Source: Chloroflexota bacterium
Lineage (GTDB): Bacteria > Chloroflexota > Anaerolineae > JAAYZQ01
Length of the DNA: 64,000 nt
Assembly: GCA_018606645.1 (NCBI GenBank)
Contig: JAGVRI010000008.1
Coordinates: 68,036-132,035 of the forward strand
Direction of reading: 5' to 3'
In this document: in pieces, positions 7,206-62,152 of the stretch
How the letters are laid out: every line of letters starts with the position of its first letter
Position numbering within the stretch: position 1 is the first letter of the stretch
Translations under genes and position numbers: made by a program
The notes under the pieces: model-generated
The model's database searches: none
What the model was told of the DNA's origin: nothing
Seen by the model: the letters and a program-made list of their open reading frames with translations, nothing else

Positions 7206-7442
7206 GGACGAAAGGCTGCAAAATCGCTGGGGTTAAGGGTTACGGGGACTCTAGGGGGTTTTGATTCGCGCCCAGCGTGAGGGCAAGATGCCAACGTTAC
7301 GAGAGCCGATGGAAGAACTGCAGGAGAAGGCAGGTTTTCGCATTGGAGCGGATTTGTTTGCTGAGTTGCTGAGAGCGGCCGACGAAGAATGAGCGCCTGC
7401 CATTTTCTTAAATCGCGTGGGCTACATGGGGGATGGTGGCAG

Positions 7443-7580
7443 CGATTCAGGTCGTCGAGAAGCTGGTGGGCCGGCGGTCGCTGGTGGAATACCAGCGCCG
7501 TGGCATCCGGCGGATGTGAAGGATACCTGGGCGGAGATCGGCAAGGCGGAACCGGATGTTGGGCTGGTGGCGAGATCCGG
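7443..7580 (+). pseudogene. degenerate, frame-broken duplicate of the 3-prime end of the 5716..6717 epimerase gene
   Basis: about 90% nucleotide identity to 6503..6637 (tcgagaagctgg...ctggtggaataccagc...ggatacctgggcggagatcggcaaggcgga...) with small indels. Confidence 0.75.
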
Positions 7581-34253: not shown

Positions 34254-34254
34254 C

Positions 34255-42713: not shown

Positions 42714-42742
42714 TTGACAGAGGTAGTGCTATCTGCTAAAAT
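42714..42742 (+). promoter_or_regulatory. candidate sigma70 promoter TTGACA -17- TAAAAT for the TetR gene
   Basis: hexamers read directly. Confidence 0.45.
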
Positions 42743-46858: not shown

Positions 46859-48264
46859 AGCATAGAGCGAATCTCTTGTTCACCGTGTTGCTGGTACTCA
46901 ACGACGCGGCCATGGTCGTTGTCGCTTTCTACCTGGCCTATTGGCTGCGTCGCGTGGTGCCCGTGCCTCCAGCCATCAATATTGCACCCTTTGCGAATTA
47001 TGCCACGATGGTGATCATCCAGGTCATTGTCATGATCACCGTCTACTTTTTCTCCCGCCTGTACGACTTGAAACGGACCATGCCCCGGCTGGATGAATTC
47101 TACCGCCTCTTCGCGGTGACTTCGGTGGGCACCCTCATCACCGTGGCCCTTACCGCGATCCTGTTCAAGAACAGCACGCTCGAACTGGACTTTCCTCGGG
47201 TGATGATCATTTATGCCTGGCTTCTCACGGTGTTCCTGGTTGCCCTTGGTCGGTCCGTGCTGGTGATGGTGCGGAATTGGCTCCGCCGACGAGGGATATG
47301 GACAGACCGGCTGCTGATCGTAGGGACCGGGGATGTGGGACGGATGATCTTGCAAAAGGTTCGGCAGATGCCGCAGTTGGGCTATCAGGCCATCGGCTTT
47401 GTGGACGGGGAGCTTCCTTCGGGTCAGGAGATCATGGGCGTACCGGTGTTAGGCACGGTGGAGGATATCCCGGATCTGATCAAAGCTCACGGCATTCAGG
47501 AGGTAATCATTGGCCGTCCCGAGCTGAGCCATGAGGAACTGCTGGACATCATCGCCCGTTGTGAACGAGGCCAGGTAGGGATCAAGATCTTCCCGGATCT
47601 ATTCCAGATCATTGCCACCGAGCTCAGCATCGGGGACCTGGGCGGGTTACCGTTGCTCAGTGTACGGGATGTCGCTCTGCGGGGTTGGAAGCTAACGCTT
47701 AAGCGGGCGGTGGATCTGGTGGGCAGCGCGGTGCTGTTGGTGCTGCTTTCGCCGTTCCTGATGCTGGTGGCACTGGCTATCAAGCTGGATTCGCGAGGGC
47801 CCGTCTTCTACGCCCAGGAGCGAATGGGTCTGGATGCCAAACCGTTCTGGTGCCTGAAATTTCGCTCGATGCACACCGAGGCTGAGAAAGACGGACCCGG
47901 TTGGACCGTCGAGCAAGATCCGCGCGTGACGCGCCTGGGCCGGTTCATCCGTCGCTTTTCAATTGATGAGCTGCCGCAACTGATCAATGTGCTGTTAGGG
48001 GAAATGAGCCTGGTGGGTCCACGGCCTGAGCGACCGGTCTACGTCGAGCAATTCCGGCGCAGCATCCCTCGCTACATGGACCGCCACCGTGAAAAAGCGG
48101 GCATGACCGGCTGGGCGCAGGTGAATGGGCTTCGAGGGGACACGTCTATCGCCGAGCGAACCAAGTATGATCTATGGTATATTGAGAACTGGTCGCTCTG
48201 GCTTGATTTCAAGATCATGCTTCGGACTCTTTTGCGTATCTTTGGCGATCGTCACGCTTATTGA
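46855..48264 (+). CDS. full-length polyprenyl-phosphate hexose-1-phosphate transferase (WbaP/WcaJ/EpsL family initiating enzyme)
   Basis: N-terminal TM block, central Rossmann-like domain, C-terminal sugar-transferase domain with [24 protein letters not shown] and GWAQVNG. Confidence 0.8.
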   Translation: MKHRANLLFTVLLVLNDAAMVVVAFYLAYWLRRVVPVPPAINIAPFANYATMVIIQVIVMITVYFFSRLYDLKRTMPRLDEFYRLFAVTSVGTLITVALTAILFKNSTLELDFPRVMIIYAWLLTVFLVALGRSVLVMVRNWLRRRGIWTDRLLIVGTGDVGRMILQKVRQMPQLGYQAIGFVDGELPSGQEIMGVPVLGTVEDIPDLIKAHGIQEVIIGRPELSHEELLDIIARCERGQVGIKIFPDLFQIIATELSIGDLGGLPLLSVRDVALRGWKLTLKRAVDLVGSAVLLVLLSPFLMLVALAIKLDSRGPVFYAQERMGLDAKPFWCLKFRSMHTEAEKDGPGWTVEQDPRVTRLGRFIRRFSIDELPQLINVLLGEMSLVGPRPERPVYVEQFRRSIPRYMDRHREKAGMTGWAQVNGLRGDTSIAERTKYDLWYIENWSLWLDFKIMLRTLLRIFGDRHAY

Positions 48265-51200
48265 GACTGACTGGCCCTTTCCTGGTCCGATCGTTTGGTG
48301 GTGATCGCCTTTTTGATCTCATCTAGAAGCATCTCGACCGACAATGGTTTGGTCAGATATTGATCGGCTCCCAAACCCAACACGTGTACGCGGTCCTTTT
48401 CCTTATCCACGGGACTGGCGGTGATCACCACAATGGGGATGGAGCGGGTCGCCTCGTTCCCTTTGAGTTCTCGAATCACCTCGTAGCCATCCAGTCCAGG
48501 CATCTTGAGATCAAGCAAGATCAGGTCCGGTGGGTGTTGTTGCACCAGGTCCAGGGCCTGTTGACCCTCCGAAGCGGTCCCCACCTGGTAGCCATGGAAC
48601 GTCAGCGCCTGTTTCAAAAAGTCCAAAATATCAGGATCGTCATCCACGACCAGCACCTGGTCGGCCTGCTTGGTTCCAGCGCGGGATAAGGCCTGGCGGA
48701 CGCTGTGCAGCAGCTTTTCCTCATCGAAGGGCTTGACGACATAATCCACGGCGCCAAGGGCATATCCCTCTTCGGCGTGGTTGAGAATGGAGACCAGGAT
48801 GACAGGGATCGGCGCCGTCACCGGATCTCTCTTGAGTTGTTCCAACAGGTCGAATCCGTCTTGACCAGGAAGCATGATGTCCAAGGTGATCACCTGAGGT
48901 TGCTCTTCTCTGGCCAACCACAATGCGTCCTCGCCACTTCCGGCGAGGAGGACCTGGTATCCTTCCAACTCGAGATGTCGTCGCATCAGGAGTGCCAGGT
49001 CAGGATCGTCCTCAACAACCAGGATTTTGGATCGGCGGCCGCTCACGGTGGCGGGCTCGGGAGTCAATAATTCCGGCGGGATCTCGGGTGTAGCGTGAAC
49101 CGTGCGTGGCAAAGTGAAGCTGAAAGTAGAACCCTCTCCAAGTTTGCTCTCGACCCAGATCTGGCCGCCCAATAACTCTACGAACATCTTGACGATAGAC
49201 AACCCCAGACCGGTGCCACGGACCTCTCGCACCAGCGGATGATCGACTCGATAGAAGCGGTCAAAGATCCGCCCGATATCGTCTGGGCTGATGCCGATGC
49301 CGGTATCGCTCACATCCACCTGGACAAATCCTTCGGTGGGCTGCACCGAGATGCGGACTCGACCTCCACTGGGCGTATATTGCCAGGCGTTCGCGAGCAG
49401 GTTGTTCAGTATCTGGGTAACGCGGGCTGCGTCCCCACGCACCTGGGGCACGTCGGGTGGCGCCTGCCATTCCAGCGTCAGGTCTTTCTCGCGATATTGC
49501 TCCTGAAAAGCGATGACTGCGTCGGTGATGATCTGGCCCAGGTCCAAGGGCTCGATATTGAGACGTAGGCGCCCCGTTTCGATCCGCGAGATATCTAGAA
49601 TGTCGTTCACCAGAGCGGTCAGCCGATCGGCGTTCGATTTGATGATTTGCAAGAAACTGCGCTGGGCATCGGTAAGGCCCCCGGCCATGCCCAGGAACAG
49701 CAGATCGGTATAGCCTTTTATCGAGGTCATGGGAGTGCGAAGTTCGTGGGACACCGTCGAAATGAATTCGTTTTTCAGCCGCTCTACCTCGGCTTCCCGG
49801 CTAATGTCCTGCAGGGCTGCAACCAGGCCGGGCGGCTCCCCGCTGGCTGTGATCAGGGGTGTGATGTGCACCATCAGCACCCGATTCCCCGCTTCCAGGC
49901 GGACTGTTCCGCTTTGCAGGAGCTGGTTCTCATCCTTGGTCTCCAGTCGGGTGCGGAGTTCATGGTAGAGAGCCTGGGCAAGCTCGCATTGAGATGGTGT
50001 AGTTCCCAATCCCAGCATGAACCGGAAATGCCGTCCCTCGATCTTCTCTGCCGAGAACCCCAACAGCTCTTCAGCTACCGGGTTGACCAGGAGCACCTGC
50101 CCAGCGGGGTCCAAGACTAGAACGCCGTCCGCGATCGACTCCAGGATGGCCCGGTTCTTGGCCGCTTCGGCCCGCAGCACCTGGAGCATCTTCCCCAATT
50201 GATCGGCCTGTTCCGTAATGTAGCTGTATAAATCGGAGTTGTTGACCGCCACCGCAATCTGGGCCGCAGCGGCGGTGACCAGCCGCAAATGGTCCTCTGT
50301 AAAGTATCCGATCTCCGGATGTCCTAATGTAATCACGCCCAGGATGTCGCCGCCGCCCAGGGCCAGGGGAGCAGCGATGACTGACCGCACATTCAGGGTC
50401 GTTCCATTGATCTCGATCCAGCGGGGATCCTCCGCAATGTCGGGGACGAGCACTGGGGTGCGGTGGTCCAGGACCCAACCGGCCAGGCCCACGCCACTGC
50501 GCAGGGGAGTGCGCTCGCCTTTCCTTGCTCGCCCCTCATCGGGCCCCAGCGCCGCTCTCAGGTGGAGATAGCCTGTTTCCTGATCGAGTAAGGTAATCGT
50601 GCCATACTGAATTCCTAGCGCTTCTGCGAAGAGCTGGAGGGCGTGCTGGAGGACCCGTTGCAGATCGAACATGGCACTCAATTCACTGGTAATGCGGTAC
50701 AAGGTTTCGGCCCGATCTCGTTGAATTGTCAATTCGTGCAAGGCCTCAGCCAGATCTCGCGTGCGGGCCTCGACCCGGTCCTCGAGTTCATTGCTCAGAT
50801 TCACGATCCTCCGGTAAAGTTGGGCATTGCGCACAGCCACAGCCACCTGGGCGGCAATCGTGGACAGGAGGGCCAGCTCTTGTTCGCCATAGAGGCCTTC
50901 TCGATCGTAGCTCTGAACTGCCATCACTCCGACCACCTGGTCGGCAACGATCAGCGGCACTCCCATCCATGACTGGGCCCACTCTTGCGGTGACTCAATC
51001 CCATGTTCCTCATAAAAGGCCATCTGCTCCTGCCTACTTCGGAACAGCACCGGCTGACGGGTACGGATCATGTAGCCGATCAATCCTTCTTCTAATCTAT
51101 ATCGGGCCGGTGGTTCCGGTTGGCCATCTTTCAAAGCGTAGGCCAGTTCCCACTCGTCACTACCTTGGTCATGGGTGGCTACCAGGAAGCTGGTAGTATC

Positions 51201-52994
51201 CAGAACCCGCCCCACCTGCTGGTGTACGGTTTGCAAGAGATCGTCCAGTTGTAGAGCACTGTTGATGGCCCAGCCGATCTCGTTGACCGTGGCCAGTTCC
51301 TGCACCCGTTGCTGTAGCTGTTCGAACAAACGGGCGTTTTCCACGGCGATCGCTGCTTGATTGGCAAAAATGGAGAGCATTTCCAAAGTAGAACGGGAGG
51401 GGCGTTGGCCATCTTGCGGACCGTCCACAGAGATGTAGCCTAACAGTCGCCCGCCAGCGCCTCTCAACGGCGCCAGGAGCATGTCGTCCGGGTGCCACTG
51501 TCCCTCATGCCACTCGCGGATGGCCGGCATGGGAACCAGCGTATGGACCTCGGATTCCCAGTCTTGTTGCTTCTGAAAGGGGAAGAAGTAGCACAGGCCC
51601 TGGCGATACTCCTCGCGAAAGAGCCGTTCATAGCGTTCTGCCGGTTGAACGACTGCTTTCATCTCCTCGAACATGGCCAGGGGCACGCCAGCCGCTGCCA
51701 CCCGATGGACCATCGGAGGAGTGCCTTTGATCACGTTGATGACTACATAGTTAAAGCCCACTGTCTCCTGGATCGCGTAGGCAATCTCTTCCAGGATCTC
51801 TTCCAGGGGAACATCGGCCCGAAGCTTGTGGCTGACCTTCAGCAAACTGCCCATCTGTTCGCTGCGGCGCCGCAAGGCAGCGTTGAGTTGGACCTGTTCC
51901 TCGTAACGCATGGCATTGCCAATGGCAATCGATGCCTGTTCGGCCAGCGCCTGGACAAAATTCAGGTCCTCTGGGCTGAACGCCTCAACCCTGGTATGTT
52001 GCAAATGGATCAGACCCACCGTCTCGCCTTCGTACAAGATCGGCACAGCCATTGATGAACGTACGTCGGCCTGGGGCCAGGCTGCATCGCTCTCGATTCC
52101 AACATCGTTCATGAGCTGCGCCCTGCTGCTCTCCAGAGCCTCACGGGTGAGGCGGCAGTGCATCGGATCCAGGTTCGCAAGGACCTGCTGTTCTTCGGTT
52201 GAACCTCCATAGGCGGTGTGCAAGGTGAACTGTCCGGAGCTTGGTTCTTTGATCATGACATATCCACGAACTGCCCGGGTGGTCTGAGCCGCTGCTTCGA
52301 GGACCACTCGCAGGATGTGGTCTCGATCCAAGGTAGCCGTCAGCTCGCGAGCGATATGCTGCAGGGCCATCCATTCTTCCATCTGAGCGGGCGGCTCATG
52401 GTCAAGACGTCCGTCCGGGTTGCGGCAAGAAGTGCGTTCCAACTGTTCTCGGGAGGAGTGCACGATCAAAGTCAATCCCACGTAGATCAACAGACTACCG
52501 ATGAGCGGCACCCAGAACGATCCGCTCTCCAAGGTCCAGAACGATCCGTTCTCCAAGATCCAGGAAGTTGACCCTGAGCAGACAAACAGAAACCAGACAA
52601 TACCATTTGCGGCCAGGGCCGGCCCCAGGTCCAGGCGGGCGGCTATCAGCCCGATCAGGCTGCATCCCCACAATGCGGCCTGCATCGGGGAGCCACGGGT
52701 CCCCCAGAAGGCCCAGCCGGCGAAGGCGATGTCCGCTGCCGTCCATCCCCAGCCTTTCCACTGCGCCGGGCAAAACCGAGCCAATCCCCAATAGGCGGCA
52801 ATATGACCTCCCGCGGCCGCCACCAAAGCCAGGGCCCTGAGCCAGTCGCGCTCCAACGCCGCATAGCTTACGGGGAACAAGATTGCTATGCGCAACACCC
52901 AGACCAGGGCGTGCTCAATAGGATTGTGGGGCCAGATAAGCAGGTTCCTTTTGTTCGTGACTCTCGGTTGCAACCTGCGTTTCCTCCTGGACAC
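48258..52994 (-). CDS. 1578-aa hybrid sensor histidine kinase: N-terminal TM region, multiple GAF and PAS domains, HisKA + HATPase_c, two C-terminal receiver domains
   Basis: H-box SHELRTPMTSIKGYTDLL, G-box GTGLGLSIV, REC motifs KILVVEDDPDLA..LDIMLPGQDGF and QVLVVDDDPDIL..LDLKMPGLDGY. Confidence 0.8.
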   Translation of the reverse strand: MSRRKRRLQPRVTNKRNLLIWPHNPIEHALVWVLRIAILFPVSYAALERDWLRALALVAAAGGHIAAYWGLARFCPAQWKGWGWTAADIAFAGWAFWGTRGSPMQAALWGCSLIGLIAARLDLGPALAANGIVWFLFVCSGSTSWILENGSFWTLESGSFWVPLIGSLLIYVGLTLIVHSSREQLERTSCRNPDGRLDHEPPAQMEEWMALQHIARELTATLDRDHILRVVLEAAAQTTRAVRGYVMIKEPSSGQFTLHTAYGGSTEEQQVLANLDPMHCRLTREALESSRAQLMNDVGIESDAAWPQADVRSSMAVPILYEGETVGLIHLQHTRVEAFSPEDLNFVQALAEQASIAIGNAMRYEEQVQLNAALRRRSEQMGSLLKVSHKLRADVPLEEILEEIAYAIQETVGFNYVVINVIKGTPPMVHRVAAAGVPLAMFEEMKAVVQPAERYERLFREEYRQGLCYFFPFQKQQDWESEVHTLVPMPAIREWHEGQWHPDDMLLAPLRGAGGRLLGYISVDGPQDGQRPSRSTLEMLSIFANQAAIAVENARLFEQLQQRVQELATVNEIGWAINSALQLDDLLQTVHQQVGRVLDTTSFLVATHDQGSDEWELAYALKDGQPEPPARYRLEEGLIGYMIRTRQPVLFRSRQEQMAFYEEHGIESPQEWAQSWMGVPLIVADQVVGVMAVQSYDREGLYGEQELALLSTIAAQVAVAVRNAQLYRRIVNLSNELEDRVEARTRDLAEALHELTIQRDRAETLYRITSELSAMFDLQRVLQHALQLFAEALGIQYGTITLLDQETGYLHLRAALGPDEGRARKGERTPLRSGVGLAGWVLDHRTPVLVPDIAEDPRWIEINGTTLNVRSVIAAPLALGGGDILGVITLGHPEIGYFTEDHLRLVTAAAAQIAVAVNNSDLYSYITEQADQLGKMLQVLRAEAAKNRAILESIADGVLVLDPAGQVLLVNPVAEELLGFSAEKIEGRHFRFMLGLGTTPSQCELAQALYHELRTRLETKDENQLLQSGTVRLEAGNRVLMVHITPLITASGEPPGLVAALQDISREAEVERLKNEFISTVSHELRTPMTSIKGYTDLLFLGMAGGLTDAQRSFLQIIKSNADRLTALVNDILDISRIETGRLRLNIEPLDLGQIITDAVIAFQEQYREKDLTLEWQAPPDVPQVRGDAARVTQILNNLLANAWQYTPSGGRVRISVQPTEGFVQVDVSDTGIGISPDDIGRIFDRFYRVDHPLVREVRGTGLGLSIVKMFVELLGGQIWVESKLGEGSTFSFTLPRTVHATPEIPPELLTPEPATVSGRRSKILVVEDDPDLALLMRRHLELEGYQVLLAGSGEDALWLAREEQPQVITLDIMLPGQDGFDLLEQLKRDPVTAPIPVILVSILNHAEEGYALGAVDYVVKPFDEEKLLHSVRQALSRAGTKQADQVLVVDDDPDILDFLKQALTFHGYQVGTASEGQQALDLVQQHPPDLILLDLKMPGLDGYEVIRELKGNEATRSIPIVVITASPVDKEKDRVHVLGLGADQYLTKPLSVEMLLDEIKKAITTKRSDQERASQSQ

Positions 52995-53026: not shown

Positions 53027-53911
53027 TCAACCACGACGTCGCGCCTCGGCCGCCACCTCGGTGATCTCTCGAATGTCGGAAAAAGGAACGGTGTCGTGCT
53101 GGATCTGTCCAATGGCTAATGTCATCAAAGGCGCTCGCTGCGTTCTGCCGCTGCTGTCCACGATTTCGACGTAACCGCGCTCCCGATCCTTGAAACTATA
53201 GAAAGTGACAACCTCGTTCTGGAAACGTTGTTGGAGGCGAGCCTTCATGGGGGCAGCGGCCTCCGGGGTGGTGATGATCAGAAAATCATCCCGGCCGATA
53301 TGGCCGACAAATTCGGTCCCGGCGCCGAGTTCATCCACGACCTCGGTGAGGAGCATCGCCGTGAAACGCAGTACATCATCACCGGCCACGAACCCGTAGA
53401 CGTCGTTGAATTCGTCCATGTGATTGACCCCGATGTACAACAATGCCCAATCCTTGCGGCGCATAAGCTGACGAAGCTGGTCTTCAATCAGTTTACTGCT
53501 AGGCAAGCCGGTCACCGGGCTGGTCAGGCTCAGTCGGTTAGCTCGCTGGAGTGAATTCTGTACCCGGAGCAGCAAGAGCTGCAGATCGAAGGGTTTGGTG
53601 ATATAGTCATCGGCTCCCAGTTCCAGACCGGCAATCTGATCGCTCCGTTCGTCCCGCTGGGTCAGGAAGATAATCGGGATGTGGCTGGTGCGGAGGTTGG
53701 CACGCAAGCGACGGCAGACCTCATATCCATCGATGTCGGGCAACATGATATCCAGGATAATCAGGTGAGGCAGCTTGCGCCGGCATATGTCCAGCGCTTC
53801 TTCGCCACGGAGGGCGACCATCGTTTCAAACCCCTGGGAATCGAAATAGATTCGTAGCATTTTGGAAATATCCACGTCATCCTCGACGATAAGTAAACGA
53901 CCCTTGCCCAT
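53027..53911 (-). CDS. response regulator with GGDEF domain carrying a degenerate GRDDF active-site motif
   Basis: REC N-domain (LLIVEDDVDI...LDIMLPDIDGY); GGDEF-fold C-domain with HIGRDDFLII where RYGG(D/E)EF is expected. Confidence 0.7.
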   Translation of the reverse strand: MGKGRLLIVEDDVDISKMLRIYFDSQGFETMVALRGEEALDICRRKLPHLIILDIMLPDIDGYEVCRRLRANLRTSHIPIIFLTQRDERSDQIAGLELGADDYITKPFDLQLLLLRVQNSLQRANRLSLTSPVTGLPSSKLIEDQLRQLMRRKDWALLYIGVNHMDEFNDVYGFVAGDDVLRFTAMLLTEVVDELGAGTEFVGHIGRDDFLIITTPEAAAPMKARLQQRFQNEVVTFYSFKDRERGYVEIVDSSGRTQRAPLMTLAIGQIQHDTVPFSDIREITEVAAEARRRG

Positions 53912-53992
53912 CTCGCTTCATTCCTCCCTTGCCCTTGGATTCTTTCATCTCTCGCAGTGCCTAGCCGGCTTTTGCTGGTATCCATCAGTTTC

Positions 53993-55078
53993 TCAGATTT
54001 TGACATACAATGCCTGGTGAGCTTTCTGCTTAACCCGTGCGATCATTTCAGGGGTCAGGTTCTTTCCCAGGCTGTACAGATTTGAAAGGTGAAACCCGTG
54101 TTTCCGGGCCAGTTGAGCGATCTCGTCAATTCGTTGCAGAGATAGTTCTTTGCCGAGAGTAAAACACTCGTACCGCCCTTCCAGGGTAAGGATCATCGTC
54201 TCGGCCATACAGCCGTAGACTGTGCCTGGCGGAAGGCCAATGTCAAACCCGAGGTTCATTTCTCCGGGAACAGCCGCCACTCCGCCATCGATCAGGAGCA
54301 CATCAGTTCGCACTCTGCGGACCTCAGGGTGGACGCTGGGAGGGCGGGCCACATCACACACGATGGCTCCCCGTTTGAGGTGCTCCGGTTTGATGATGGG
54401 GACCGTCGCACTGGAAACGGCCACCACCAGATCGGCTTCCGAAAGGGCGGCGAGATCGGTGGCGACCACGGCCTGAGTTCCAAATGATTCGACCAGGTGC
54501 TGCACTGCCTGTAATCGATCTCTGTGGCGGCCGATCAGGATCAGTCTGGGAACGTTTCGGGCAAGCAAGTGGCTGCACGCTTTTCCCAAAGAGCCTGAAG
54601 CGCCCACGATCGCGGCCGAGCAATCTGTCAATTCGATATTCATCCGCTTTGCCGCCTCATGAACCGCCTCCATGGTGAGAGCGACGGTATAGCTGTGGCC
54701 AGTCGTGACCGGTATCGACAAGCGGTTCGAAATGGTAACGCCGGCATCTCCGACGACGGAGGTAAAGGCTCCTAACCCCAACAGCCGGGCGCCTAGCCGT
54801 TCAGCAAGATGGCCCGTCTGGACGATTTTGTCATAGGCGGTGGACAGGGGGGCCTGGAGCATCTGTTTTGGTGTGAGAGGGCAGGCCAGCAACCAGCCTT
54901 CGATCTCTTGTCCCGTGGCTTCCGAACGGATGCCGGTGATGTGGGCCAGACGGACGGGAGGAAAGAAGCGGGAGCCAAAGTCTACCACGGACGGCGGCAG
55001 CCTGCCCAGCAAGGGAAATTTGCGGGCGACATCCCTTTGAGGTTCGACAGGATGGACTATAAAGGCAAAAGAGGTCAT
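53993..55078 (-). CDS. NAD(P)-binding Rossmann-fold oxidoreductase, shikimate/quinate dehydrogenase-like
   Basis: glycine-rich loop AIVGASGSLGKA and overall two-domain layout; family assignment tentative. Confidence 0.35.
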   Translation of the reverse strand: MTSFAFIVHPVEPQRDVARKFPLLGRLPPSVVDFGSRFFPPVRLAHITGIRSEATGQEIEGWLLACPLTPKQMLQAPLSTAYDKIVQTGHLAERLGARLLGLGAFTSVVGDAGVTISNRLSIPVTTGHSYTVALTMEAVHEAAKRMNIELTDCSAAIVGASGSLGKACSHLLARNVPRLILIGRHRDRLQAVQHLVESFGTQAVVATDLAALSEADLVVAVSSATVPIIKPEHLKRGAIVCDVARPPSVHPEVRRVRTDVLLIDGGVAAVPGEMNLGFDIGLPPGTVYGCMAETMILTLEGRYECFTLGKELSLQRIDEIAQLARKHGFHLSNLYSLGKNLTPEMIARVKQKAHQALYVKI

Positions 55079-55134
55079 CCTTACCGGTCCAGACGATGAA
55101 TTACTTGCCTTCTATTCCGTCCGTTCACCAGCTA

Positions 55135-56382
55135 TTAACGCGGGTAGAATCTTGGATGCAACCCGGCGTCGGGCCATCGAAGATGGTCGCTGTCCTCGTA
55201 GGTGACATTGTGCGAAATCACAGACCTCGTATCCGTGTGGGCCAGCACTACATCTGATTCGATGGTTCTGGCCGGATAAATGGTCAGATCGGCCCCGATA
55301 CGGCAATGATGCCCGACACATCCCCCCAGCACAGTCATGCCCACTTCTTCCAGTTGGCCACGATGGAGAGTCCGAAGTGGCTTGGGGATCAGGTTAAAGT
55401 CGGTAAAGGTTGTGCCTGCACCGACGAACGAATCCCGTCCAACCACACAGAATTGGAGACAGGCGTTCTGGGCCACCATGGTGTCTTCCATCAAGGTGGT
55501 CATGAACAGCGAAGCACGGAACGGGAGATAACAGCGATCGCCGACGACGCTGATCAGCAGTTTGTTCCCATGCAAGATACTGACATTGTTGCCGATGATG
55601 CAGTTCGAAATGACCACGCCAGCCCCGATGTAGACATTGTCGCCGATGACGGTGGGTCCCTGAATCACGGCCGTGGGATCGATCTGGGTGTTGCGGCCGA
55701 CCTTGACCAGTTTGGAGCAGGAGAGAAACTGTTTCCGTTCCAGCAGGGCCCTCCAAAAGATCGAAAGCCGCACACCGAGTTTGTCCAGACTTCTCTCCAT
55801 CCGCGCCCCCTCGGCCAGAACGCCAAACAGGCAGTTGGCGGTAAAGATGTGCACCCAGTTCTCAATGGATAGGAAAGCCCGCAAGGGAATCTGAAAAATC
55901 AGATCCCCCTTCTCGTCCGACATATGCGTGGGGACGTGGTAGGATCCAAACTCGTAGGCACCCGTATCGATCACCAGAGGTCGGGTGATCTCTTCCAGTC
56001 CGCGGGGGTAATACCACATATTGGCCACGTAGACATCGCCTTCTCGTCGAATGCCACTCTGCAGAGGCAAGGCGTGCCTGTTGATGACCGGATCGTCCAA
56101 GGAAAAGGCCACACGGCATGCTTTTCCCAGCCTTCGAGCTTTAGCCAGAAAGGTCTCGATAAACGCCTGGTCGAAAAAGAGGTTATCCTGGTAGATCAAA
56201 GTCTCTTCGTATTGGTCGGGCGGAATCTGCTCAAAGAAATCTACCTCAAGCTCCGAGGTGCAGCACGGTTCGAGCAAATCCTTCTGATGCAGCCACAGCG
56301 GCTTGTTCAGCACCCTCAGATCGCGTGCCGGCTCGTTGAACGGTGAGATCTTGCGTTTGTCACGAATCACTACTATTCTCAT
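55135..56382 (-). CDS. hexapeptide-repeat (left-handed beta-helix) protein, GlmU C-terminal-like, with an N-terminal nucleotidyltransferase-like domain
   Basis: runs of [LIV]G.N..IG....I hexapeptides in the C-terminal 200 aa. Confidence 0.45.
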   Translation of the reverse strand: MRIVVIRDKRKISPFNEPARDLRVLNKPLWLHQKDLLEPCCTSELEVDFFEQIPPDQYEETLIYQDNLFFDQAFIETFLAKARRLGKACRVAFSLDDPVINRHALPLQSGIRREGDVYVANMWYYPRGLEEITRPLVIDTGAYEFGSYHVPTHMSDEKGDLIFQIPLRAFLSIENWVHIFTANCLFGVLAEGARMERSLDKLGVRLSIFWRALLERKQFLSCSKLVKVGRNTQIDPTAVIQGPTVIGDNVYIGAGVVISNCIIGNNVSILHGNKLLISVVGDRCYLPFRASLFMTTLMEDTMVAQNACLQFCVVGRDSFVGAGTTFTDFNLIPKPLRTLHRGQLEEVGMTVLGGCVGHHCRIGADLTIYPARTIESDVVLAHTDTRSVISHNVTYEDSDHLRWPDAGLHPRFYPR

Positions 56383-56391
56383 GTTGCCCCA

Positions 56392-57045
56392 CTAGTCCAG
56401 GGGCCTCTTGCCCACCCGGTAAGTGCAGCTTGGATCTCCCTTGGCAATGCACAGAACCTCTTCCACCGGGATGTTCTTGCCGCCTGTCACCCAGTGCAAT
56501 CCCTCTTGTAAGAGGCCCAACCCACCATAGCAGATTGGGATTTCAGCCTTGCGTCCCCAGCACACGGGACAGCGGTCAATATGGTAGTAGAAGTGGTTCG
56601 CATCCTCTTCGATCCGGACGATTTGATCGCTGGTTTTGTTAAAGGTCTCGGCCATCGCATTCAGGCCGATCTTGACCTTGACCCCCAGTGGGAGCAAACG
56701 GAATGCCAGGTCCGCAATGCCCATCACTGCGGCAAAGTCTTTGAGCGCATAGTACAGGCCCGCCCGTCCGGCTCGGATGGCCAGTCCCTTTCCGCCCCGT
56801 GGTCCGTACATATCTTCCAGTGCCTGGTTGAGGGCTCCCATCTCATCAAAACTCCAGCCGAGGTCCAGGTTGTTGGGCGGATAATTGTTGATCCGATGGC
56901 GCAGCCTGGCATAGTTGAGCACTGCGTTCACTCCATTTTTCCCCATCACATCTTCCAGGGCCAGCAGGAACATGCGGCCCATTTTGTTGGGCCAATAGTA
57001 TTGTGGAGTGAGTATTCGGTTGTCCTGTTCGTCATTGTCTGTCAT
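56392..57045 (-). CDS. V4R (4-vinyl-reductase-type small-molecule-binding) domain protein
   Basis: C-terminal CPVCWG...PICYGGLGLLQEGLHWVTGG cysteine pattern resembles V4R domains; tentative. Confidence 0.4.
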   Translation of the reverse strand: MTDNDEQDNRILTPQYYWPNKMGRMFLLALEDVMGKNGVNAVLNYARLRHRINNYPPNNLDLGWSFDEMGALNQALEDMYGPRGGKGLAIRAGRAGLYYALKDFAAVMGIADLAFRLLPLGVKVKIGLNAMAETFNKTSDQIVRIEEDANHFYYHIDRCPVCWGRKAEIPICYGGLGLLQEGLHWVTGGKNIPVEEVLCIAKGDPSCTYRVGKRPLD

Positions 57046-57094
57046 TCGCGTGCCAGCTTTAAAGGTTTCGGTTCTCCACAGGCCATCGGGTCGC

Positions 57095-57877
57095 TTACGA
57101 GGCCAGAAAATCCATCAAGATGGAATAGAATTGCTCAGGCTCATCCAGCATAGGGAAGTGTCGGGAGCCGGCCATCATCTCGACTCGCGCTGCCGGTACG
57201 CTATCGAACAATTCTGCCTGGCGGGGGTCCACGATCTTGTCGCCTCGTCCATACACCCCCAAGGTGGGCATCTGCAATTCTCCGATTCTAGGTCTCAGAT
57301 CGGTGTGATGGAGCGAGTGAATGCTCCACAGAAAAGATTCCAGGGTCATTTTGGATAGGTCGTGCATGAGCAACTGATACCACTGGCTCCAATTGGCAGC
57401 GATCCAGGGAGCAAACAGTTTGATACCCAGACGCAGCAGTGAGGGGGAGTTCCAGACGAGAAAGGCGATCCATGGATACCCGGCGAGCTTCAAGAAGATG
57501 TTTAATGAGCGGCCGTCGATCGGGGAACCGACGGCAGCTACCTTCTCAACCCGTTCAGGATGATCGAGGGCCAGGTTCAAAGCCACTGTCCCTCCCATAG
57601 AATGGCCGATCACCGGCGCACGGGAGATGCCCAACTGCTCCATGAACTGATCCACCAGGTCCACAAAATCAGCGAGTGAATATTTTTCTCGGCGTTTATC
57701 CGATTCGCCAAATCCCCAGAAATCCAAGGCATAGGTTCGGTATCGGGACGAGAGGGCTTCCATTGTGCCCAGCCAACACCCCCAGGAACCGAGCCAACCA
57801 TGGAGCAACACCACCGGCCTGCCCCGGCCTACCACCTCATAATGGACGATCCCCTGATCGGTAACGACCGAGCTCAA
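57095..57877 (-). CDS. alpha/beta-fold hydrolase
   Basis: HGWLGS oxyanion region and GHSMGG nucleophile elbow. Confidence 0.7.
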   Translation of the reverse strand: MSSVVTDQGIVHYEVVGRGRPVVLLHGWLGSWGCWLGTMEALSSRYRTYALDFWGFGESDKRREKYSLADFVDLVDQFMEQLGISRAPVIGHSMGGTVALNLALDHPERVEKVAAVGSPIDGRSLNIFLKLAGYPWIAFLVWNSPSLLRLGIKLFAPWIAANWSQWYQLLMHDLSKMTLESFLWSIHSLHHTDLRPRIGELQMPTLGVYGRGDKIVDPRQAELFDSVPAARVEMMAGSRHFPMLDEPEQFYSILMDFLAS

Positions 57878-57914
57878 CGTCTCTCTCTGATGCGGACCTG
57901 TGCCTGAGGGCTTG

Positions 57915-58286
57915 TCAGATCAGCCGCCCCAAATCCTCGGCAGCGCGTCGCATGTCAAGGAATACTAACCCCAACTTGGCGTCCGGACGGGCAAGTACTG
58001 TAAGGACAGCCTCTTCTCCTACCGCACTCAGGATCACATAACCATTCGTTCCACGGATATATACCTGTTCGAGCGTCCCCCGCCGGAGCTCACTGGCGAT
58101 CCGTTCTCCCAGGCTGAGCATGGCTGCGCTCATCGCCGAGACGCGCTCTTCCTCCACATCCGGGGGCAGGGCCGAGGCGATGATCAACCCGTCCACGCTG
58201 ACCAAAGCCGAAGCCTCGATGTCGGGCGTGCTGTGCTGCAAATCTTTGAGCCGTACCACCATCTGTTCTGTGCGTGTACGTGGCAT
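57915..58286 (-). CDS. roadblock/LC7-domain protein (MglB-like)
   Basis: 123 aa; ...ALVSVDGLIIAS....EEERVSAMSAAMLSLGERIA... typical roadblock pattern. Confidence 0.6.
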   Translation of the reverse strand: MPRTRTEQMVVRLKDLQHSTPDIEASALVSVDGLIIASALPPDVEEERVSAMSAAMLSLGERIASELRRGTLEQVYIRGTNGYVILSAVGEEAVLTVLARPDAKLGLVFLDMRRAAEDLGRLI

Positions 58287-58341
58287 AGAGCCCTACCTCC
58301 TTGCCGCCAAGGGCGGATGATACCGCACGGTCAGCGCTCGC

Positions 58342-58872
58342 TTATTCAGGCACCGTTTCCAGAATACTATACAATAGTTCCAGCAGAACCTTCTTTACAC
58401 TCTCTTTGTCGGTGGCCACACAGGGCAGCACTTTGACCCCAGGATGGATCTTGAGAGCGATGCGCAAATCCTCCACCGGCCATGCATCTGCCAGGTCCTG
58501 CTTGTTCGCCGCTACTACATAGGGCGTGTCGGCATAAGTCCGAAACACATCCAGAATCTGTCTCGCCTCGCGGAAGGTTTCAGGGCGTGTGCTGTCTACC
58601 AGGACGATAAAGCCCAGCATCCCCTCCGAGAGGATCTCCCACATGAAATCAAAACGCTTTTGCCCAGGTGTCCCAAATAGATACAGGACCAGATCGTTAT
58701 CCACCGTGATCCGGCCAAAGTCCATGGCCACCGTAGTTTCCTTTTTGATCCGGGATGAGGTATCGGTAATCTTGCGTTCGGTCGAGACGACCTCGATCTC
58801 GCTTACGGACCGAATGAATTCCGTCTTGCCTGCGTTGAACGGCCCAGTAATCACCATCTTTACCGTCTGCAT
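58342..58872 (-). CDS. small Ras-like GTPase (MglA-like ATP/GTP-binding protein)
   Basis: G1 GPFNAGKT, G3 LFGTPGQ, G4 ANKQD; start likely at MQTVKMVITG. Confidence 0.65.
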   Translation of the reverse strand: MQTVKMVITGPFNAGKTEFIRSVSEIEVVSTERKITDTSSRIKKETTVAMDFGRITVDNDLVLYLFGTPGQKRFDFMWEILSEGMLGFIVLVDSTRPETFREARQILDVFRTYADTPYVVAANKQDLADAWPVEDLRIALKIHPGVKVLPCVATDKESVKKVLLELLYSILETVPE

Positions 58873-58950
58873 CTCTGCGTCTATCCTATTTGTCTTCCAT
58901 CGGTTGAGATACTGCCACACACGGGACGCGTGTTGAGCTAGATGCCAGAA

Positions 58951-59769
58951 TCACAAACGCTTGATGCGGTTGATCAACTTGTGGATGACCGAGCGTTTGG
59001 CTGCCGGCGAGCGAGAAACCATTTCGGTGACCGGGGGTTGCTTCGGCGGCAGACCTTCGGGCTCCACGATCTCGACCAGGCCGACCTGAAGGAGACCATA
59101 GACCAGCTTGCGAATTTGAAATTCATCCATGCCGATCCGCTGGGCGATCTGTTTGATCGAGTTGCGAGGGTTGATATAGGAGATGACCCGCCACTCGTCC
59201 ACGGTGAGGTTGATGTTGCGCAGTTGGGTTTGAGGACGATCGGTAAACTTGAGGGCCATGTTCAGGTCCGGCAATTCGTCTTTGAGTCGTTCCCACTCCT
59301 TCATCCGGCGGCTGCCTTCGAGGATGATATTCTCCAGGTCAATGGACACGGTGATCACATCCTCAGAGGGCAACCGGTTAGGCTCAAAATGGAACAGACC
59401 ATCGGACCAGGCAAACAGGCCATACACAGTCTCCAGGATGTCGCGTCGGACGCTATCCACGATATCACGTTGGCTCAGATAACCAGCGCTGATGAGGAGC
59501 ATAGCCAGTTCCTTGTCGCTGCGATCGGCCGCGTGTTGGCGGATGCCTCGCGCCTGCTCCTCGGTAAGCCGACCTGCACGGGCCAACATGCTGGTCAGGT
59601 GCCCGTCCTGGCCGCTGGTAGCCGCGTACACCAATTTGCCTTCTCGGAAGAACAAGGACGTCACACCGGAAGGAACCTGGATGGTCAAGGCACCGGTCTT
59701 GCGGGCCAGATGAATCAGATTCAGGAGTTGGGTTGTGCTAAAGTCCCTGAGGTTGCCTTTTAGCGCCAT
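58951..59769 (-). CDS. DUF4388 (PATAN-like) domain protein
   Basis: N-terminus GNLRDFSTTQLLNLIHLARKTGALTI matches the DUF4388 signature; first gene of the minus-strand operon. Confidence 0.55.
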   Translation of the reverse strand: MALKGNLRDFSTTQLLNLIHLARKTGALTIQVPSGVTSLFFREGKLVYAATSGQDGHLTSMLARAGRLTEEQARGIRQHAADRSDKELAMLLISAGYLSQRDIVDSVRRDILETVYGLFAWSDGLFHFEPNRLPSEDVITVSIDLENIILEGSRRMKEWERLKDELPDLNMALKFTDRPQTQLRNINLTVDEWRVISYINPRNSIKQIAQRIGMDEFQIRKLVYGLLQVGLVEIVEPEGLPPKQPPVTEMVSRSPAAKRSVIHKLINRIKRL

Positions 59770-59867
59770 GTCGATCGATCCTCAACCCGCCATCAGATTG
59801 GGCACAACACTTGGACCGAGGGATGAACGGCTGAGCCCCGGCCTGCTCCCGGAAACCATCTTGGCTC

Positions 59868-59896
59868 ATTATACCCGGTCTCTAAGGATATGTCAA
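59868..59896 (-). promoter_or_regulatory. consensus sigma70 promoter on the minus strand (TTGACA -17- TATAAT) driving the DUF4388-GTPase-roadblock operon
   Basis: reverse complement reads TTGACA TATCCTTAGAGACCGGG TATAAT; about 90 nt upstream of the 59769 start. Confidence 0.55.
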
Positions 59897-59948
59897 CCGT
59901 CTTACGGGTCCAATCCAGAGGCGTAATTGACTTGGGCTCCAGGCGGAC

Positions 59949-59978
59949 TTGAAGAAAAATCCTTGGCTGTGCTATAAT
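59949..59978 (+). promoter_or_regulatory. divergent sigma70-type promoter TTGAAG -18- TATAAT for the 60035 gene
   Basis: hexamers read directly. Confidence 0.45.
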
Positions 59979-60034
59979 GGGCAACGCTCACTACGAGACG
60001 AAAAGCTGTTCCGAGCCAGGGAGGGCCAGTCCGA

Positions 60035-61300
60035 ATGGATGAAAGACGAAGAGGATGGGGAATGGCGGCCGTTGCGGCGGGGCTTTTTCTGGTTGCTCTC
60101 TATCTTGGGAGCTGCCTGGCGCCCAATGACGGCGATGTGACGCCCACGCCGACCAAGACGCCGCGGCCTATCAGTACCCTGGCCTCGGTGCTCCCCACCT
60201 GTACTCCAACGCCCTCTCCGTCGGCCCTTCCGGCCTTGGCCGTAGCGCCAGTCTCCACCGATGTCCTGGTCTTGAATCCGACAGCAGTAGTGACCCCAAC
60301 CCTCACCCCGTGGCCCACGCTGGCTCCAGGAATTTGTCCCCTTACGGGCAAGCCGGTGAGCGATCTGGCTTTGTTGGAGCGACGTCCGCTGGCCATCAAG
60401 GTCCAGAATGCGACCCTGTCTCGTCCTCAGTTCGGTCTGCCCCAGGCTGACCTGGTCTACGAACATCTCTCTGAAGCCGGGATCACCCGTTTCACGGCTA
60501 TTTATCTCTGTCAGCAAGTCCAGAAGGTCGGGTCTGTCCGCAGCGCGCGCTTCATTGACCTGGAGATCCCGGCGATGTACAAGAGCCTCTTCGCCTTTTC
60601 TGGAACCAGCCCCGGCTTGTATCCCAAGTTCAAAAACGCAGACTTTCGAGAGCGTGAATTCTGGTACGATCAAGGCATCCATTCGGAAGGGTTTTATCGT
60701 GACCAGGAGCTACGCGCCAAGGGGGTTCCGATCGAGCACACCCTTTTCGCCGATGCGGTCAAGATTTGGGAGATCGCCGACCGATTGGGGATCAATCAGC
60801 CCCAGGATCTGCAGGGATTGGCGTTCTCGGCCGAGACGCCGTCGGGCGGCGAGCCAGCTCCTCATATCCACATTCCATATCCCCATCGGGATATGATCGT
60901 GGACTATTACTATGATCCGGCTCTGGGTGTGTACCGTCGGTGGGACGGGAATCAACCCCATGTGGACGCAGCAACGGGTGAACCGATCACGGTCACCAAC
61001 GTCGTCGTCATCTATGCCAACCACGTAGACGCTGATTTCTACGAGGATTATCCACGGACCAACCATCCCTCGGTCCAGATCCAGTTGTGGGGCACCGGCC
61101 CGGCGGTCATCTTTCGCGATGGTCAGGCGTTTGAAGGGCTGTGGGCTCGTCCGAAACGAGAGGACATGGTGGTCTTTCGCGATCCAACTGGACAGGTTCC
61201 CATTCCGTTGAAGCCAGGCAATACCTGGATTCAACTGGTCCCGTTGCCAGGCCACCGTTGGACCTTTGAAGTGACATGGGATGCGCAGCCTGAGCCCTGA
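60035..61300 (+). CDS. putative lipoprotein with Pro/Thr-rich linker and DUF3048-like (YerB-like) C-terminal domain
   Basis: signal + LGSC lipobox-like site; ..RPLAIKVQNATLSRPQFGLPQADLVYEHLSEAGITRFTAIY..VGSVRSARF resembles DUF3048; tentative. Confidence 0.4.
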   Translation: MDERRRGWGMAAVAAGLFLVALYLGSCLAPNDGDVTPTPTKTPRPISTLASVLPTCTPTPSPSALPALAVAPVSTDVLVLNPTAVVTPTLTPWPTLAPGICPLTGKPVSDLALLERRPLAIKVQNATLSRPQFGLPQADLVYEHLSEAGITRFTAIYLCQQVQKVGSVRSARFIDLEIPAMYKSLFAFSGTSPGLYPKFKNADFREREFWYDQGIHSEGFYRDQELRAKGVPIEHTLFADAVKIWEIADRLGINQPQDLQGLAFSAETPSGGEPAPHIHIPYPHRDMIVDYYYDPALGVYRRWDGNQPHVDAATGEPITVTNVVVIYANHVDADFYEDYPRTNHPSVQIQLWGTGPAVIFRDGQAFEGLWARPKREDMVVFRDPTGQVPIPLKPGNTWIQLVPLPGHRWTFEVTWDAQPEP

Positions 61301-61336: not shown

Positions 61337-62152
61337 GTGGGCCCGGATGCCATTGTGATTTGGATTATAGCATACGGCTCAGTCCGACACAATAGGCTTT
61401 TGGTAAGGGATGGGGGGCAGTCAGGGGCGAACGGATATGGTGGAGAGGTAACAGGTTGCGTGTCTGCTCGAGGAATTGGCCAGGGCCCGCGAGAACTGTC
61501 CGGCCGTGATGGTCCGATCGCTCACCATGTGCAGCCCTGGCTCCAGGCCAGGGTGAAACTGATGCCTGACCTGTTGGTTCAGTCACCCCCCTGGGTTCGT
61601 GCCGTGTTCGATCATGCCTGGGTGCCGGTGCGGATGCTGGCTCAACAGCTCCAGTGTTTGCCCGCTGCTTTGTGGGCGTTTCTCCTGAGCTGCCAGGGAG
61701 GTTACGTGGTGCTCACTGCTGGCGAGTCCCAGTATGCTCCCGGCCCCGCGACCCTTCGGCGTCGAACGGTGCAGAATGTAGCTTGGATCTCGATCCAGGA
61801 CCTGGCCCGGAACAGCGAACGGCCGCTTCACATTATCGGCCATCTGATCGATCACCACCTGGGATGCGCGGGCGAGGAGGGCCCCTGGTTCTCTGAAGGA
61901 GGAGGGGTAGTGCCGATTTGGAGGGAAGAGGGGGCGCGACTTCAGGGATTGTTTGCGCTCGGTTATGGGGTCGATGAGATAGCGCGGTTGAGCCTACGCG
62001 ATTATTTTGCCCAATCGCTGGCTTATTATTGCCGGGACCGAAAGCATCTGAACATGGTCGATCCACCAATGGAAAGATGGCTTCGTCACACATTATGGAA
62101 TCGAACCTTCTGGCAAGTTGCTGTCCAAGGACAGCGTTCATCCGATACGTGA
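61337..62152 (+). CDS. hypothetical protein
   Basis: ORF only; no recognizable motif; start uncertain. Confidence 0.25.
   Translation: MGPDAIVIWIIAYGSVRHNRLLVRDGGQSGANGYGGEVTGCVSARGIGQGPRELSGRDGPIAHHVQPWLQARVKLMPDLLVQSPPWVRAVFDHAWVPVRMLAQQLQCLPAALWAFLLSCQGGYVVLTAGESQYAPGPATLRRRTVQNVAWISIQDLARNSERPLHIIGHLIDHHLGCAGEEGPWFSEGGGVVPIWREEGARLQGLFALGYGVDEIARLSLRDYFAQSLAYYCRDRKHLNMVDPPMERWLRHTLWNRTFWQVAVQGQRSSDT

Follow-up and report, generated by a model that had tools for sequence, protein, structure and literature searches.

What unites a Ras-like GTPase, a very large hybrid histidine kinase, two enzymes and two putative binding proteins on a single strand of DNA? The question is raised by a nine-gene array in the genome of a Chloroflexota bacterium (assembly GCA_018606645.1, contig JAGVRI010000008.1, positions 68,036 to 132,035), a stretch of 64,000 nucleotides that was analysed as a whole and is referred to here as the window. 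As judged by comparison with related genomes, the array is a single conserved operon that is confined to Chloroflexota and there chiefly to Anaerolineae. We put the chance somewhat above even that it is a multi-component signalling operon, in which a kinase phosphorelay is combined with accessory ligand-handling proteins and a G-protein branch that includes a PATAN protein; the best reading is a differently built form of the kinase-coupled G-protein signalling known from actinobacteria. No description of this gene linkage was found in the literature, in agreement with a preliminary description of this DNA, which had held that it is not a described system.

Architecture and conservation of the operon

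The nine open reading frames (ORFs) of the array (59769→48258) are co-directional on the minus strand. Their order and coordinates in the preliminary description were reproduced, as was each of its domain calls by Pfam and NCBIfam. In the direction of transcription, the elements are the following.

59868..59896 (-): sigma-70-type promoter, TTGACA-17-TATAAT, 12/12 match
59770..59867 (-): 5' leader sequence of ~98 nt, from the -10 box to the PATAN start codon
58951..59769 (-): PATAN (PatA_N/DUF4388) protein, 272 aa; PF14332, 3e-28, residues 4-160
58342..58872 (-): Ras-like small GTPase of MglA Groups 2-5, 176 aa; ATP_bind_1, Ras and Arf family matches; the ORF extends to 58920
57915..58286 (-): MglB-like Roadblock/LC7 protein, 123 aa; PF03259 (Robl_LC7), 3e-20
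57095..57877 (-): alpha/beta hydrolase, 260 aa; Abhydrolase_1, 4e-36
56392..57045 (-): stand-alone V4R protein, 217 aa; PF02830, 2.8e-6, below the Pfam cut-off
55135..56382 (-): GlmU/ST0452-fold protein, 415 aa, with a nucleotidyltransferase-like N-domain and a left-handed beta-helix (LbH); hexapeptide/LbH matches
53993..55078 (-): acyl-thioester reductase of the AAR/PigE-N-domain family, 361 aa; PigE 2e-63, AcACP_reductase 5e-31
53027..53911 (-): response regulator with a REC and a degenerate GGDEF domain, 294 aa; Pfam
48258..52994 (-): hybrid histidine kinase, 1578 aa; four GAF domains, PAS, HisKA, HATPase_c and two REC domains

The intergenic gaps across the array range from 9 to 81 nt, confirming the earlier figures, and recognisable Shine-Dalgarno sequences precede most starts. 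For the GTPase, the most likely true start, going by its relatives, is the ATG at 58872 (MQTVKM...), where 43 of 55 orthologues begin, in place of the GTG at 58920; with this correction the PATAN-to-GTPase gap is 78 nt. The consensus promoter that had been reported to head the array matches exactly, as does no other site in the window; two sites with at most one mismatch were found there against 0.02 expected. Within the cluster, no other sigma-70-like site of at least 9/12 was detected on the minus strand besides that at 59896..59868, and the terminator-like hairpins on this strand are as frequent as chance predicts (14 versus 13.7 expected), all of them within coding sequence and none intergenic. 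A riboswitch was considered and dropped, as no Rfam family matched the 98-nt leader or the rest of the cluster at E<=1.

Species-representative genomes were scanned with an alignment of the LbH protein, for which a close alignment was used because a broad 35-sequence alignment was too divergent for search patterns. The scan yielded about 76 Chloroflexota loci (labelled L001 etc.), onto which the nine proteins were mapped by tblastn and by iterative profile searches of the ORFs called there. The presence and absence counts so obtained are subject to ORF calling and to what the profiles detected within 10-kb flanks, and their denominators are the loci with enough flank. The loci come from Anaerolineales, Thermoflexales, Caldilineales, Promineifilaceae and Aggregatilineales, plus Roseiflexus and Kouleothrix. 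The linkage first described in a single genome therefore recurs across several orders and is not a chance juxtaposition.

The commonest gene order is PATAN, GTPase, hydrolase, V4R, LbH, reductase, REC-GGDEF and GAF kinase, and the full set up to the REC-GGDEF gene, minus the roadblock gene, is the modal pattern (24/49 fully flanked loci). PATAN and GTPase genes were each found in 47/57 loci, the hydrolase in 46/57, V4R in 37/57, the reductase in 50/67 and REC-GGDEF in 58/67, and a kinase was detected downstream in 46/60; the roadblock gene was present in only 2/57 loci, plus one divergent copy. The flanks vary by locus, with Hdr/FlpD genes in L001, ABC/RND genes in L088 and DUF3048 in L003 and L089. 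The DUF3048 gene, which is the divergent neighbour in the window and in these last two loci, lies upstream in only 3 of 36 surveyed loci. The retention of gene order amid differing flanks indicates that the linkage is under selection and is more than inherited synteny. Moreover, a promoter of the form TTGAC(T/G)-17-TATAAT (11/12) stands upstream of the PATAN gene in 34/49 orthologous loci, compared with 1.4% of randomly drawn windows of 300 nt. The tight spacing, the single strong promoter conserved in relatives and the gene order retained across Anaerolineae orders with differing flanks all support the earlier view of the array as one unit.

An alternative view, which we consider unlikely, is that two independent modules adjoin here, a PATAN/GTPase(/MglB) switch and a system of kinase, REC-GGDEF and LbH protein, sharing a promoter for economy with no coupling between them. 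In favour of this, the part comprising LbH, reductase, REC-GGDEF and kinase occurs alone in 10/57 loci, and in Chloroflexia (L053, Roseiflexus sp.; L058, Kouleothrix aurantiaca; and L054) the order is V4R, LbH, REC-GGDEF, kinase and hydrolase, and the flank that was available contains neither a PATAN nor a GTPase gene. Such kinase/LbH parts without PATAN and GTPase indicate that the G-protein branch was gained or lost separately from the kinase core. The link between LbH protein and GAF kinase is also older than that with the GTPase (see below), and the neighbourhoods of MglA Groups 1, 4 and 5 are reported to 'vary widely' (Wuichet & Sogaard-Andersen, PMC4316618). Against independence, the juxtaposition is kept in 47/57 species-level loci of several orders with changing flanks, and the strong conserved promoter occurs only upstream of PATAN, no promoter of at least 11/12 having been found at stand-alone LbH loci. 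In addition, the GTPase-to-hydrolase gaps that join both halves are typically only ~20-50 nt, and the hydrolase and V4R genes sit between those for the GTPase and the LbH protein, so the modules are interleaved.

A proposed kinase-coupled G-protein branch

In the signalling reading, the persistent backbone would consist of the membrane-anchored multi-GAF hybrid histidine kinase, the REC-GGDEF receiver and the GlmU-fold protein. Around it, the alpha/beta hydrolase, the thioester reductase and the stand-alone V4R protein would be variably added. The promoter-proximal G-protein branch would comprise a Group-5-type MglA-like GTPase and the PATAN-winged-helix protein, with an MglB-like GTPase-activating protein (GAP) only in the lineage of the window. 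The enzymes would make or process a hydrophobic, acyl-derived ligand, which the V4R protein, and possibly the GlmU-fold protein, would bind. These two proteins would then modulate the kinase, as the cytochrome P450 (P450) and GAF accessories do in actinobacterial G-protein systems, and the kinase would phosphorylate its own receivers and the REC-GGDEF adaptor. Finally, the signal would set the nucleotide state or the localization of the GTPase/PATAN pair, which would act on a cellular machine; by analogy with cyanobacterial PATAN proteins, the type IV pilus motor is a candidate output. We infer the ligand, the contacts among the proteins, the direction of the signal and the output alike. The preliminary description had proposed that a ligand is coupled to cyclic di-GMP (c-di-GMP) and kinase signalling; the coupling of ligand and kinase is still the best reading, while the c-di-GMP part is lost with the degenerate GGDEF domain.

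Several observations weigh against this reading. As noted, the kinase/LbH part occurs without PATAN and GTPase in some loci and in Chloroflexia, and V4R, reductase and roadblock proteins are each dispensable in some lineages; therefore, no single ligand pathway is obligatory. The hydrolase has generic superfamily matches only (esterases, MCP hydrolases, BioH and PcaD), the GlmU-fold protein could still be an enzyme given a nearly invariant His358, and no pilus genes were found in the window. Nor does the phyletic pattern support a strict hand-off from reductase to V4R protein: both are present in 25 loci, V4R alone in 8, the reductase alone in 11 and neither in 5, with no dependence between them.

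The kinase carries transmembrane-like segments in its first ~180 residues. Among the orthologous loci, the length of the partner kinase differs about three-fold, ranging from 1006 to 2629 aa in L005-L080 and reaching 3018 aa in L003 (13372-21260), the rest of the operon being constant; the long forms in L003, L088 and L089 bear many GAF repeats.

The GTPase is the most conserved member of the operon (median identity 76%), and four of its motifs are invariant in 55 orthologues: the P-loop GPF(N/S)AGKT, G2 TTVAMDFG, G3 GTPGQ and G4 NKQD. MglA Groups 2-5 are distinguished by GTPGQ and a Thr that replaces the G2 arginine, whereas the Group 1 (motility) MglA has TVPGQ and an arginine finger, and Group 2 (conservon type) has NxFD (PMC4316618). 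By these motifs, the GTPase belongs to Groups 2-5 and is not a Group 1 polarity/motility MglA: its G2 has TT with no arginine finger and its G3 is GTPGQ rather than TVPGQ. The polarity side of the earlier comparison, in which such triads were called known polarity and signalling modules, accordingly needs revision. Groups 1 and 5 are those with members in Chloroflexi and, now and then, with PATAN neighbours (PMC4316618), and given the GTPGQ/Thr motifs, the taxonomy and the PATAN neighbourhood, rather than a phylogeny, the GTPase is most likely a member of Group 5. That survey does not report the conserved neighbourhood seen here and mentions neither V4R nor hydrolase (PMC4316618).

The roadblock protein carries a conserved Asp-Gly pair (SVDGL) and, encoded beside the GTPase, is predicted to be an MglB-type GAP. 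It is confined to the close clade of the window (L001, L003/L004 and L005), apart from the divergent copy in L016. The GTPase-to-hydrolase gap is shorter than 60 nt in most loci, too short for a gene, and among the larger gaps L016 gave the only plausible hidden roadblock gene and the sole candidate outside the clade of the window. In this gap (~6912-7529), a 123-aa ORF (…VVASGDGLPVAMVG…) is a candidate very divergent Roadblock/LC7 protein (profile E=0.03). Because the roadblock gene is restricted to one clade and most gaps are too short to hide another, it is, on this distribution, a lineage-specific insert. The GTPase/roadblock/DUF4388 triad, previously put forward as a module of the array, is then a local elaboration and not the conserved core.

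The PATAN match (residues 4-160) is longer than the 122-position profile, which is consistent with an alpha-helical insertion; it is followed by a weak MarR-like winged-helix match (residues 174-265, E=0.018), and the Pfam scan found no REC domain in the protein. PATAN is an output domain that binds PilB1/PilC, and MglA/MglB homologues occur near PATAN genes (bioRxiv 10.1101/2021.06.11.447907), a proximity of MglA and PATAN that had been noted earlier (Makarova 2006, as cited in PMC4316618). The PatA-type regulators of cyanobacteria (PixG, PixE and PatA) share this domain with the protein of the window; they differ in that they are PATAN-REC fusions, whereas here the domain is joined to the weak winged-helix match and the receivers are on separate proteins.

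Among systems already described, the closest is the actinobacterial G protein system (AGPS), or conservon. It consists of a kinase (CvnA), an MglB-like protein (CvnB), CvnC (a DUF742 protein whose gene lies between those for the roadblock protein and the GTPase) and a GTPase (CvnD), with an accessory P450 (CvnE) or GAF protein (CvnF) that serves as a sensory input to the kinase (PMC13343842, PMC4316618); the accessory proteins accompany kinases lacking sensory domains, and CvnF8 binds and stimulates its kinase (PMC13343842). The operon resembles conservons in combining a kinase, a GTPGQ-type MglA-family GTPase and, in the window, a roadblock protein, in its extra ligand-handling accessory genes and in its phylum-restricted distribution, and by analogy it plausibly works in a comparable way. 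In contrast to conservons, none of the nine proteins matched DUF742/CvnC at E<=0.01, a PATAN-winged-helix protein being present instead, and the G4 motif is the invariant NKQD rather than the NxFD of Group 2. Conservons have no response regulator, whereas this operon encodes a true hybrid kinase (four GAF, PAS and two REC domains) and a REC-GGDEF protein. Its accessories are a hydrolase, a V4R protein, a GlmU-fold protein and a thioester reductase rather than P450 or GAF proteins, its phylum is Chloroflexota rather than Actinobacteria, and the roadblock gene is absent from most orthologous clusters. The MglA/MglB(/RomR) systems of Myxococcus and Thermus likewise encode an MglA-family GTPase with a Roadblock/LC7 partner, but the GTPase described here has TT in G2, no intrinsic arginine finger and GTPGQ rather than TVPGQ, its MglB partner is not conserved in the cluster, and the cluster is embedded in a kinase operon.

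Until now, small-GTPase signalling coupled to kinases has been regarded either as peculiar to actinobacteria (conservons/AGPS) or as the polarity module of Myxococcus. If Anaerolineae, abundant filamentous bacteria of sediments, hot springs and wastewater sludge, had a second such system, differently built and strongly conserved, the wiring of Ras-like switches to two-component kinases via ligand-handling accessories would prove to be a recurrent bacterial design. It is conceivable, if rather doubtful, that Chloroflexota have a 'G-protein system' of their own, in which a phosphorelay of the multi-GAF hybrid kinase and a pseudo-cyclase adaptor reads an endogenous acyl-derived (aldehyde-type) ligand presented by a V4R carrier of H-NOX/TRAPPC3 fold and a GlmU-fold pseudo-enzyme, and switches the GTPase/PATAN pair, through which a polar or pilus machine of multicellular filaments would be controlled. 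If so, this would be a Chloroflexota system independent of, or deeply related to, the actinobacterial conservon, and a single bacterial operon would bring together a small GTPase, a roadblock protein and a protein of TRAPPC3 fold. Tractable objects for study are the GlmU-fold pseudo-enzyme family tied to GAF kinases, the pseudo-diguanylate cyclase and a Group-5 MglA mostly without a cis-encoded MglB.

Putative ligand-handling proteins and the remaining alternatives

The catalytic triad of the hydrolase, Ser93 (GHSMGG), Asp213 and His240, is conserved in at least 57/60 orthologues, and for this reason the enzyme should be active. Resemblances of proteins of the operon to BchO and BchJ were far below cut-offs and were taken as superfamily noise.

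The 361-aa protein, formerly described as a Rossmann oxidoreductase, is indeed one, and its assignment can be refined to the AAR/PigE-N type. It is homologous over its full length to AAR and the PigE N-domain (PDB matches 4ppm, 5e-40, and AAR 6jzq, 6e-25), with the Rossmann G-x-x-G-x-x-G motif conserved. Cys290 is found in all 53 sequences with a residue at that column, which we take to be the position of the catalytic Cys of AAR. The protein looks active, predictably in the reduction of an acyl-thioester to an aldehyde, and PigE is known to reduce a thioester to an aldehyde (PMC8341465). As its scores are far below the equivalog cut-offs (108 versus 449.7; 215 versus 850), it is by this measure a member of the AAR/PigE-N family and not an orthologue. 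It also differs from AAR and PigE in having no aldehyde-deformylating oxygenase or aminotransferase partner here and in its signalling context, as opposed to hydrocarbon or pigment production.

Relatives that match the 415-aa protein over its full length, at 70-94% identity, are encoded in many metagenome-assembled genomes of Anaerolineae. Its model (pLDDT 93) is most similar to ST0452, GMPPA/B, GlmU and VTC1-KJC; Foldseek matched 5z09 over the full length with E=1.6e-14 and TM 0.5-0.6, and the LbH region aligns with ST0452, GlmU and eIF2B epsilon/gamma. It thus shares the two-domain fold of GlmU and ST0452 over its whole length, but not their catalytic motifs. IRDKRKISPF stands opposite the GGSGERLEPI loop and LPFRA opposite IPHLS, the G-x-G-T-R NTP-binding loop is absent in all 79 aligned family members, and the catalytic His at the GlmU position is missing in all 79 as well, Phe taking its place in all members (Phe288 in this protein). 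Since the canonical motifs are lost throughout the family, the protein is probably a pseudo-enzyme or a ligand-binding scaffold, and His358 could point to a non-canonical activity. Of the earlier label 'acyltransferase-like LbH', the LbH part stands, now as a GlmU/ST0452 fold, and the catalytic implication does not, given the missing glycine loop and His. GMPPA, KONJAC and eIF2B gamma/epsilon are non-catalytic relatives of GlmU-type enzymes. The 415-aa protein is closer to these regulatory or scaffold relatives than to the enzymes.

A paralogous LbH subfamily (28-31% identity) retains the N-terminal PF...R...N..L signature. In two of three loci inspected (L085:8001-11558 and L087:8001-10825), its genes lie directly upstream of HisKA_7TM-GAF kinase genes; in the third (L086:6954-9188), the gene is directly downstream of an extended-SDR epimerase/NAD_binding_4 gene. 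Because such divergent paralogues also adjoin GAF kinases, the partnership of LbH protein and GAF kinase is, by this comparison, older than the operon, and the arrangement points to a broader, so far undescribed family of 'GlmU-fold accessory proteins of GAF kinases'.

With two enzymes whose active sites are intact, the operon could also be biosynthetic: the reductase and the hydrolase, together with a GlmU-like enzyme that is still active, would make a lipid- or sugar-nucleotide-derived compound of the envelope or a signal compound, and the kinase, the regulator and the GTPase would regulate only in cis, including control of the adjacent glycan locus. The full GlmU/ST0452 fold of the LbH protein and its His358 fit this proposal, as do a polysaccharide locus of ~45 kb that abuts the kinase gene in this genome and the glycosyltransferase and flippase genes that lie near the L003 cluster too. 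We nevertheless find it improbable. The G-x-G-T-R loop and the GlmU-position His are lost family-wide, and the reductase is missing from 17/67 loci and V4R from 20/57 while the signalling genes are kept. Furthermore, 5 of the 9 genes encode signalling proteins, and homologues of 27 glycan-locus proteins were found beyond the kinase in 0/20 loci (those extending at least 1.5 kb past the kinase).

The V4R protein has no PDB sequence relatives at E<=1; its V4R call is confirmed by a weak full-length BchJ-like match and by the predicted fold. Its model (pLDDT 88) is most similar to stand-alone H-NOX proteins (Nostoc, TM up to 0.71) and then to the H-NOX domain of soluble guanylate cyclase (sGC) beta, followed by the V4R sensor domains of MopR, PoxR and DmpR and by TRAPPC3; MJ1460 was also matched. 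Partnerships of stand-alone H-NOX proteins with kinases or GGDEF/EAL proteins are known, as in the Shewanella HnoX/HnoK and Legionella Hnox1 types. The likeness of the operon to these lies in a ~200-aa sensor of the same superfold that stands beside a kinase and a REC-GGDEF-type regulator. A true H-NOX was rejected, as no column with at least 60% His was found among 48 aligned sequences and hence no conserved His for heme; the likeness is in fold only. In place of a heme-ligating His, the protein has a Cys cluster of the V4R-Zn-site type (Cys159, Cys162, Cys172, Cys199 and Cys207, all conserved). With five conserved Cys and no conserved His, it is, from its residues, a predicted Zn-Cys V4R protein and not a heme H-NOX. 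The V4R superfold has an internal cavity for hydrophobic ligands, such as palmitate in TRAPPC3 and phenols in PoxR, and a Zn-Cys4 site (PMC10933270).

The occurrence of V4R, roadblock and GTPase genes in one operon could also be read as a counterpart of eukaryotic and Asgard sets, in which the V4R protein (TRAPPC3/Bet3 fold) and the roadblock protein form a TRAPP- or Ragulator-like platform of guanine nucleotide exchange factor (GEF) and GAP for the GTPase. The V4R model does match TRAPPC3 (6aq3, 7e8t and 7b6d; E about 1e-4 to 8e-4), and as most clusters have no MglB, another protein must regulate the GTPase. Small-GTPase genes of the Asgard archaeon MK-D1 are generally not co-operonic with roadblock, longin and TRAPPC3 genes (PMC10933270), whereas V4R, roadblock and GTPase genes are co-operonic here. 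We give little credence to this idea, since TRAPPC3/Bet3 is not the closest fold and ranks below H-NOX and MopR/PoxR, which have higher TM-scores. The V4R gene, moreover, goes with the LbH/kinase half, as Chloroflexia have it without a GTPase gene and at least 8 GTPase-bearing loci lack it, and roadblock and V4R genes occur together only in the small clade of the window. Few operons unite a small GTPase with a roadblock protein and a protein of the V4R/TRAPPC3 fold, and as one of these the operon bears on the origin of eukaryotic GTPase regulators.

In the response regulator, the phospho-acceptor Asp of the REC domain is conserved among orthologues, and in place of the GGDEF signature the window has GRDDF and most orthologues have GGDNF, with the catalytic Glu retained in none. 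When aligned to the solved cyclases 8c05 and 6tts, DID corresponds to GVN, with the metal-binding Asp replaced by Asn, and RYGGEEF to HIGRDDF. Because of the altered signature and the lost metal ligand, canonical c-di-GMP synthesis is unlikely, contrary to the earlier designation as a c-di-GMP-type regulator, and a phospho-dependent adaptor role is more plausible from the residues retained. That the protein is an active, phosphorylation-controlled diguanylate cyclase with c-di-GMP as the output of the system is very improbable, since its REC and GGDEF architecture, full-length GGDEF domain (~160 aa) and PleD-family match (2e-41, driven by the REC domain) are set against these replacements and a Pfam GGDEF match limited to positions 5-109 of 161.

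Flanking genes and further observations

A ~45-kb polysaccharide locus (2914-48264, plus strand) forms a single plus-strand run that converges on the kinase gene. It encodes epimerases and dehydratases, GT4 and GT2 transferases, a Wzx-like flippase and a Wzy_C ligase/polymerase, as well as Wzz and a BY-kinase-like ATPase, Polysacc_synt_2, NTP_transf_5, DUF4012 and a Bac_transf priming transferase. The GC content of its core (8-18 kb) is 0.50-0.54, markedly lower than that of the surroundings (0.58-0.64), pointing to a segment that is variable or was exchanged horizontally. The operon had been proposed to regulate this locus. Comparative support for this proposal is nil: a conserved adjacency was rejected, given the result beyond the kinase (0/20 loci) and the differing upstream flanks, and the adjacency is, in this comparison, specific to this genome. 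An 843-aa protein encoded within the locus (34219-36750, plus strand) contains CARDB, NHL and Vgb_lyase/SGL beta-propeller repeats and is unusual in a glycan locus.

Membership of the operon in an anti-phage defence system was rejected, as a PADLOC scan of eight of the nine proteins (the kinase being left out) gave only two weak matches, both to the REC-GGDEF protein (E ~2e-4).

In one relative (L089:12514-13425), the REC-GGDEF and kinase genes are separated by a gene for an Rce1-like/CPBP intramembrane protease. In eukaryotes, lipidated small GTPases are substrates of Rce1; as the GTPase of the operon has no CAAX end, the insertion is probably coincidental.

Two ORFs of the window, at 61337-62152 (plus strand, 271 aa) and 12798-14105 (plus strand, 435 aa), had no Pfam match at the thresholds used. 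Opposite the operon promoter, a divergent promoter-like site with an extended -10 TG (TTGAAG-18-TATAAT, 10/12; 59949-59978, plus strand) faces the DUF3048 gene (60035-61300), so that the 59770-60034 spacer appears to hold back-to-back promoters. A second near-consensus promoter, TTGACA-17-TAAAAT (11/12; 42714-42742, plus strand), precedes a TetR-family gene (42779-43426) by 37 nt; after this gene come one that is epimerase-like and one for an acyl-CoA dehydrogenase.

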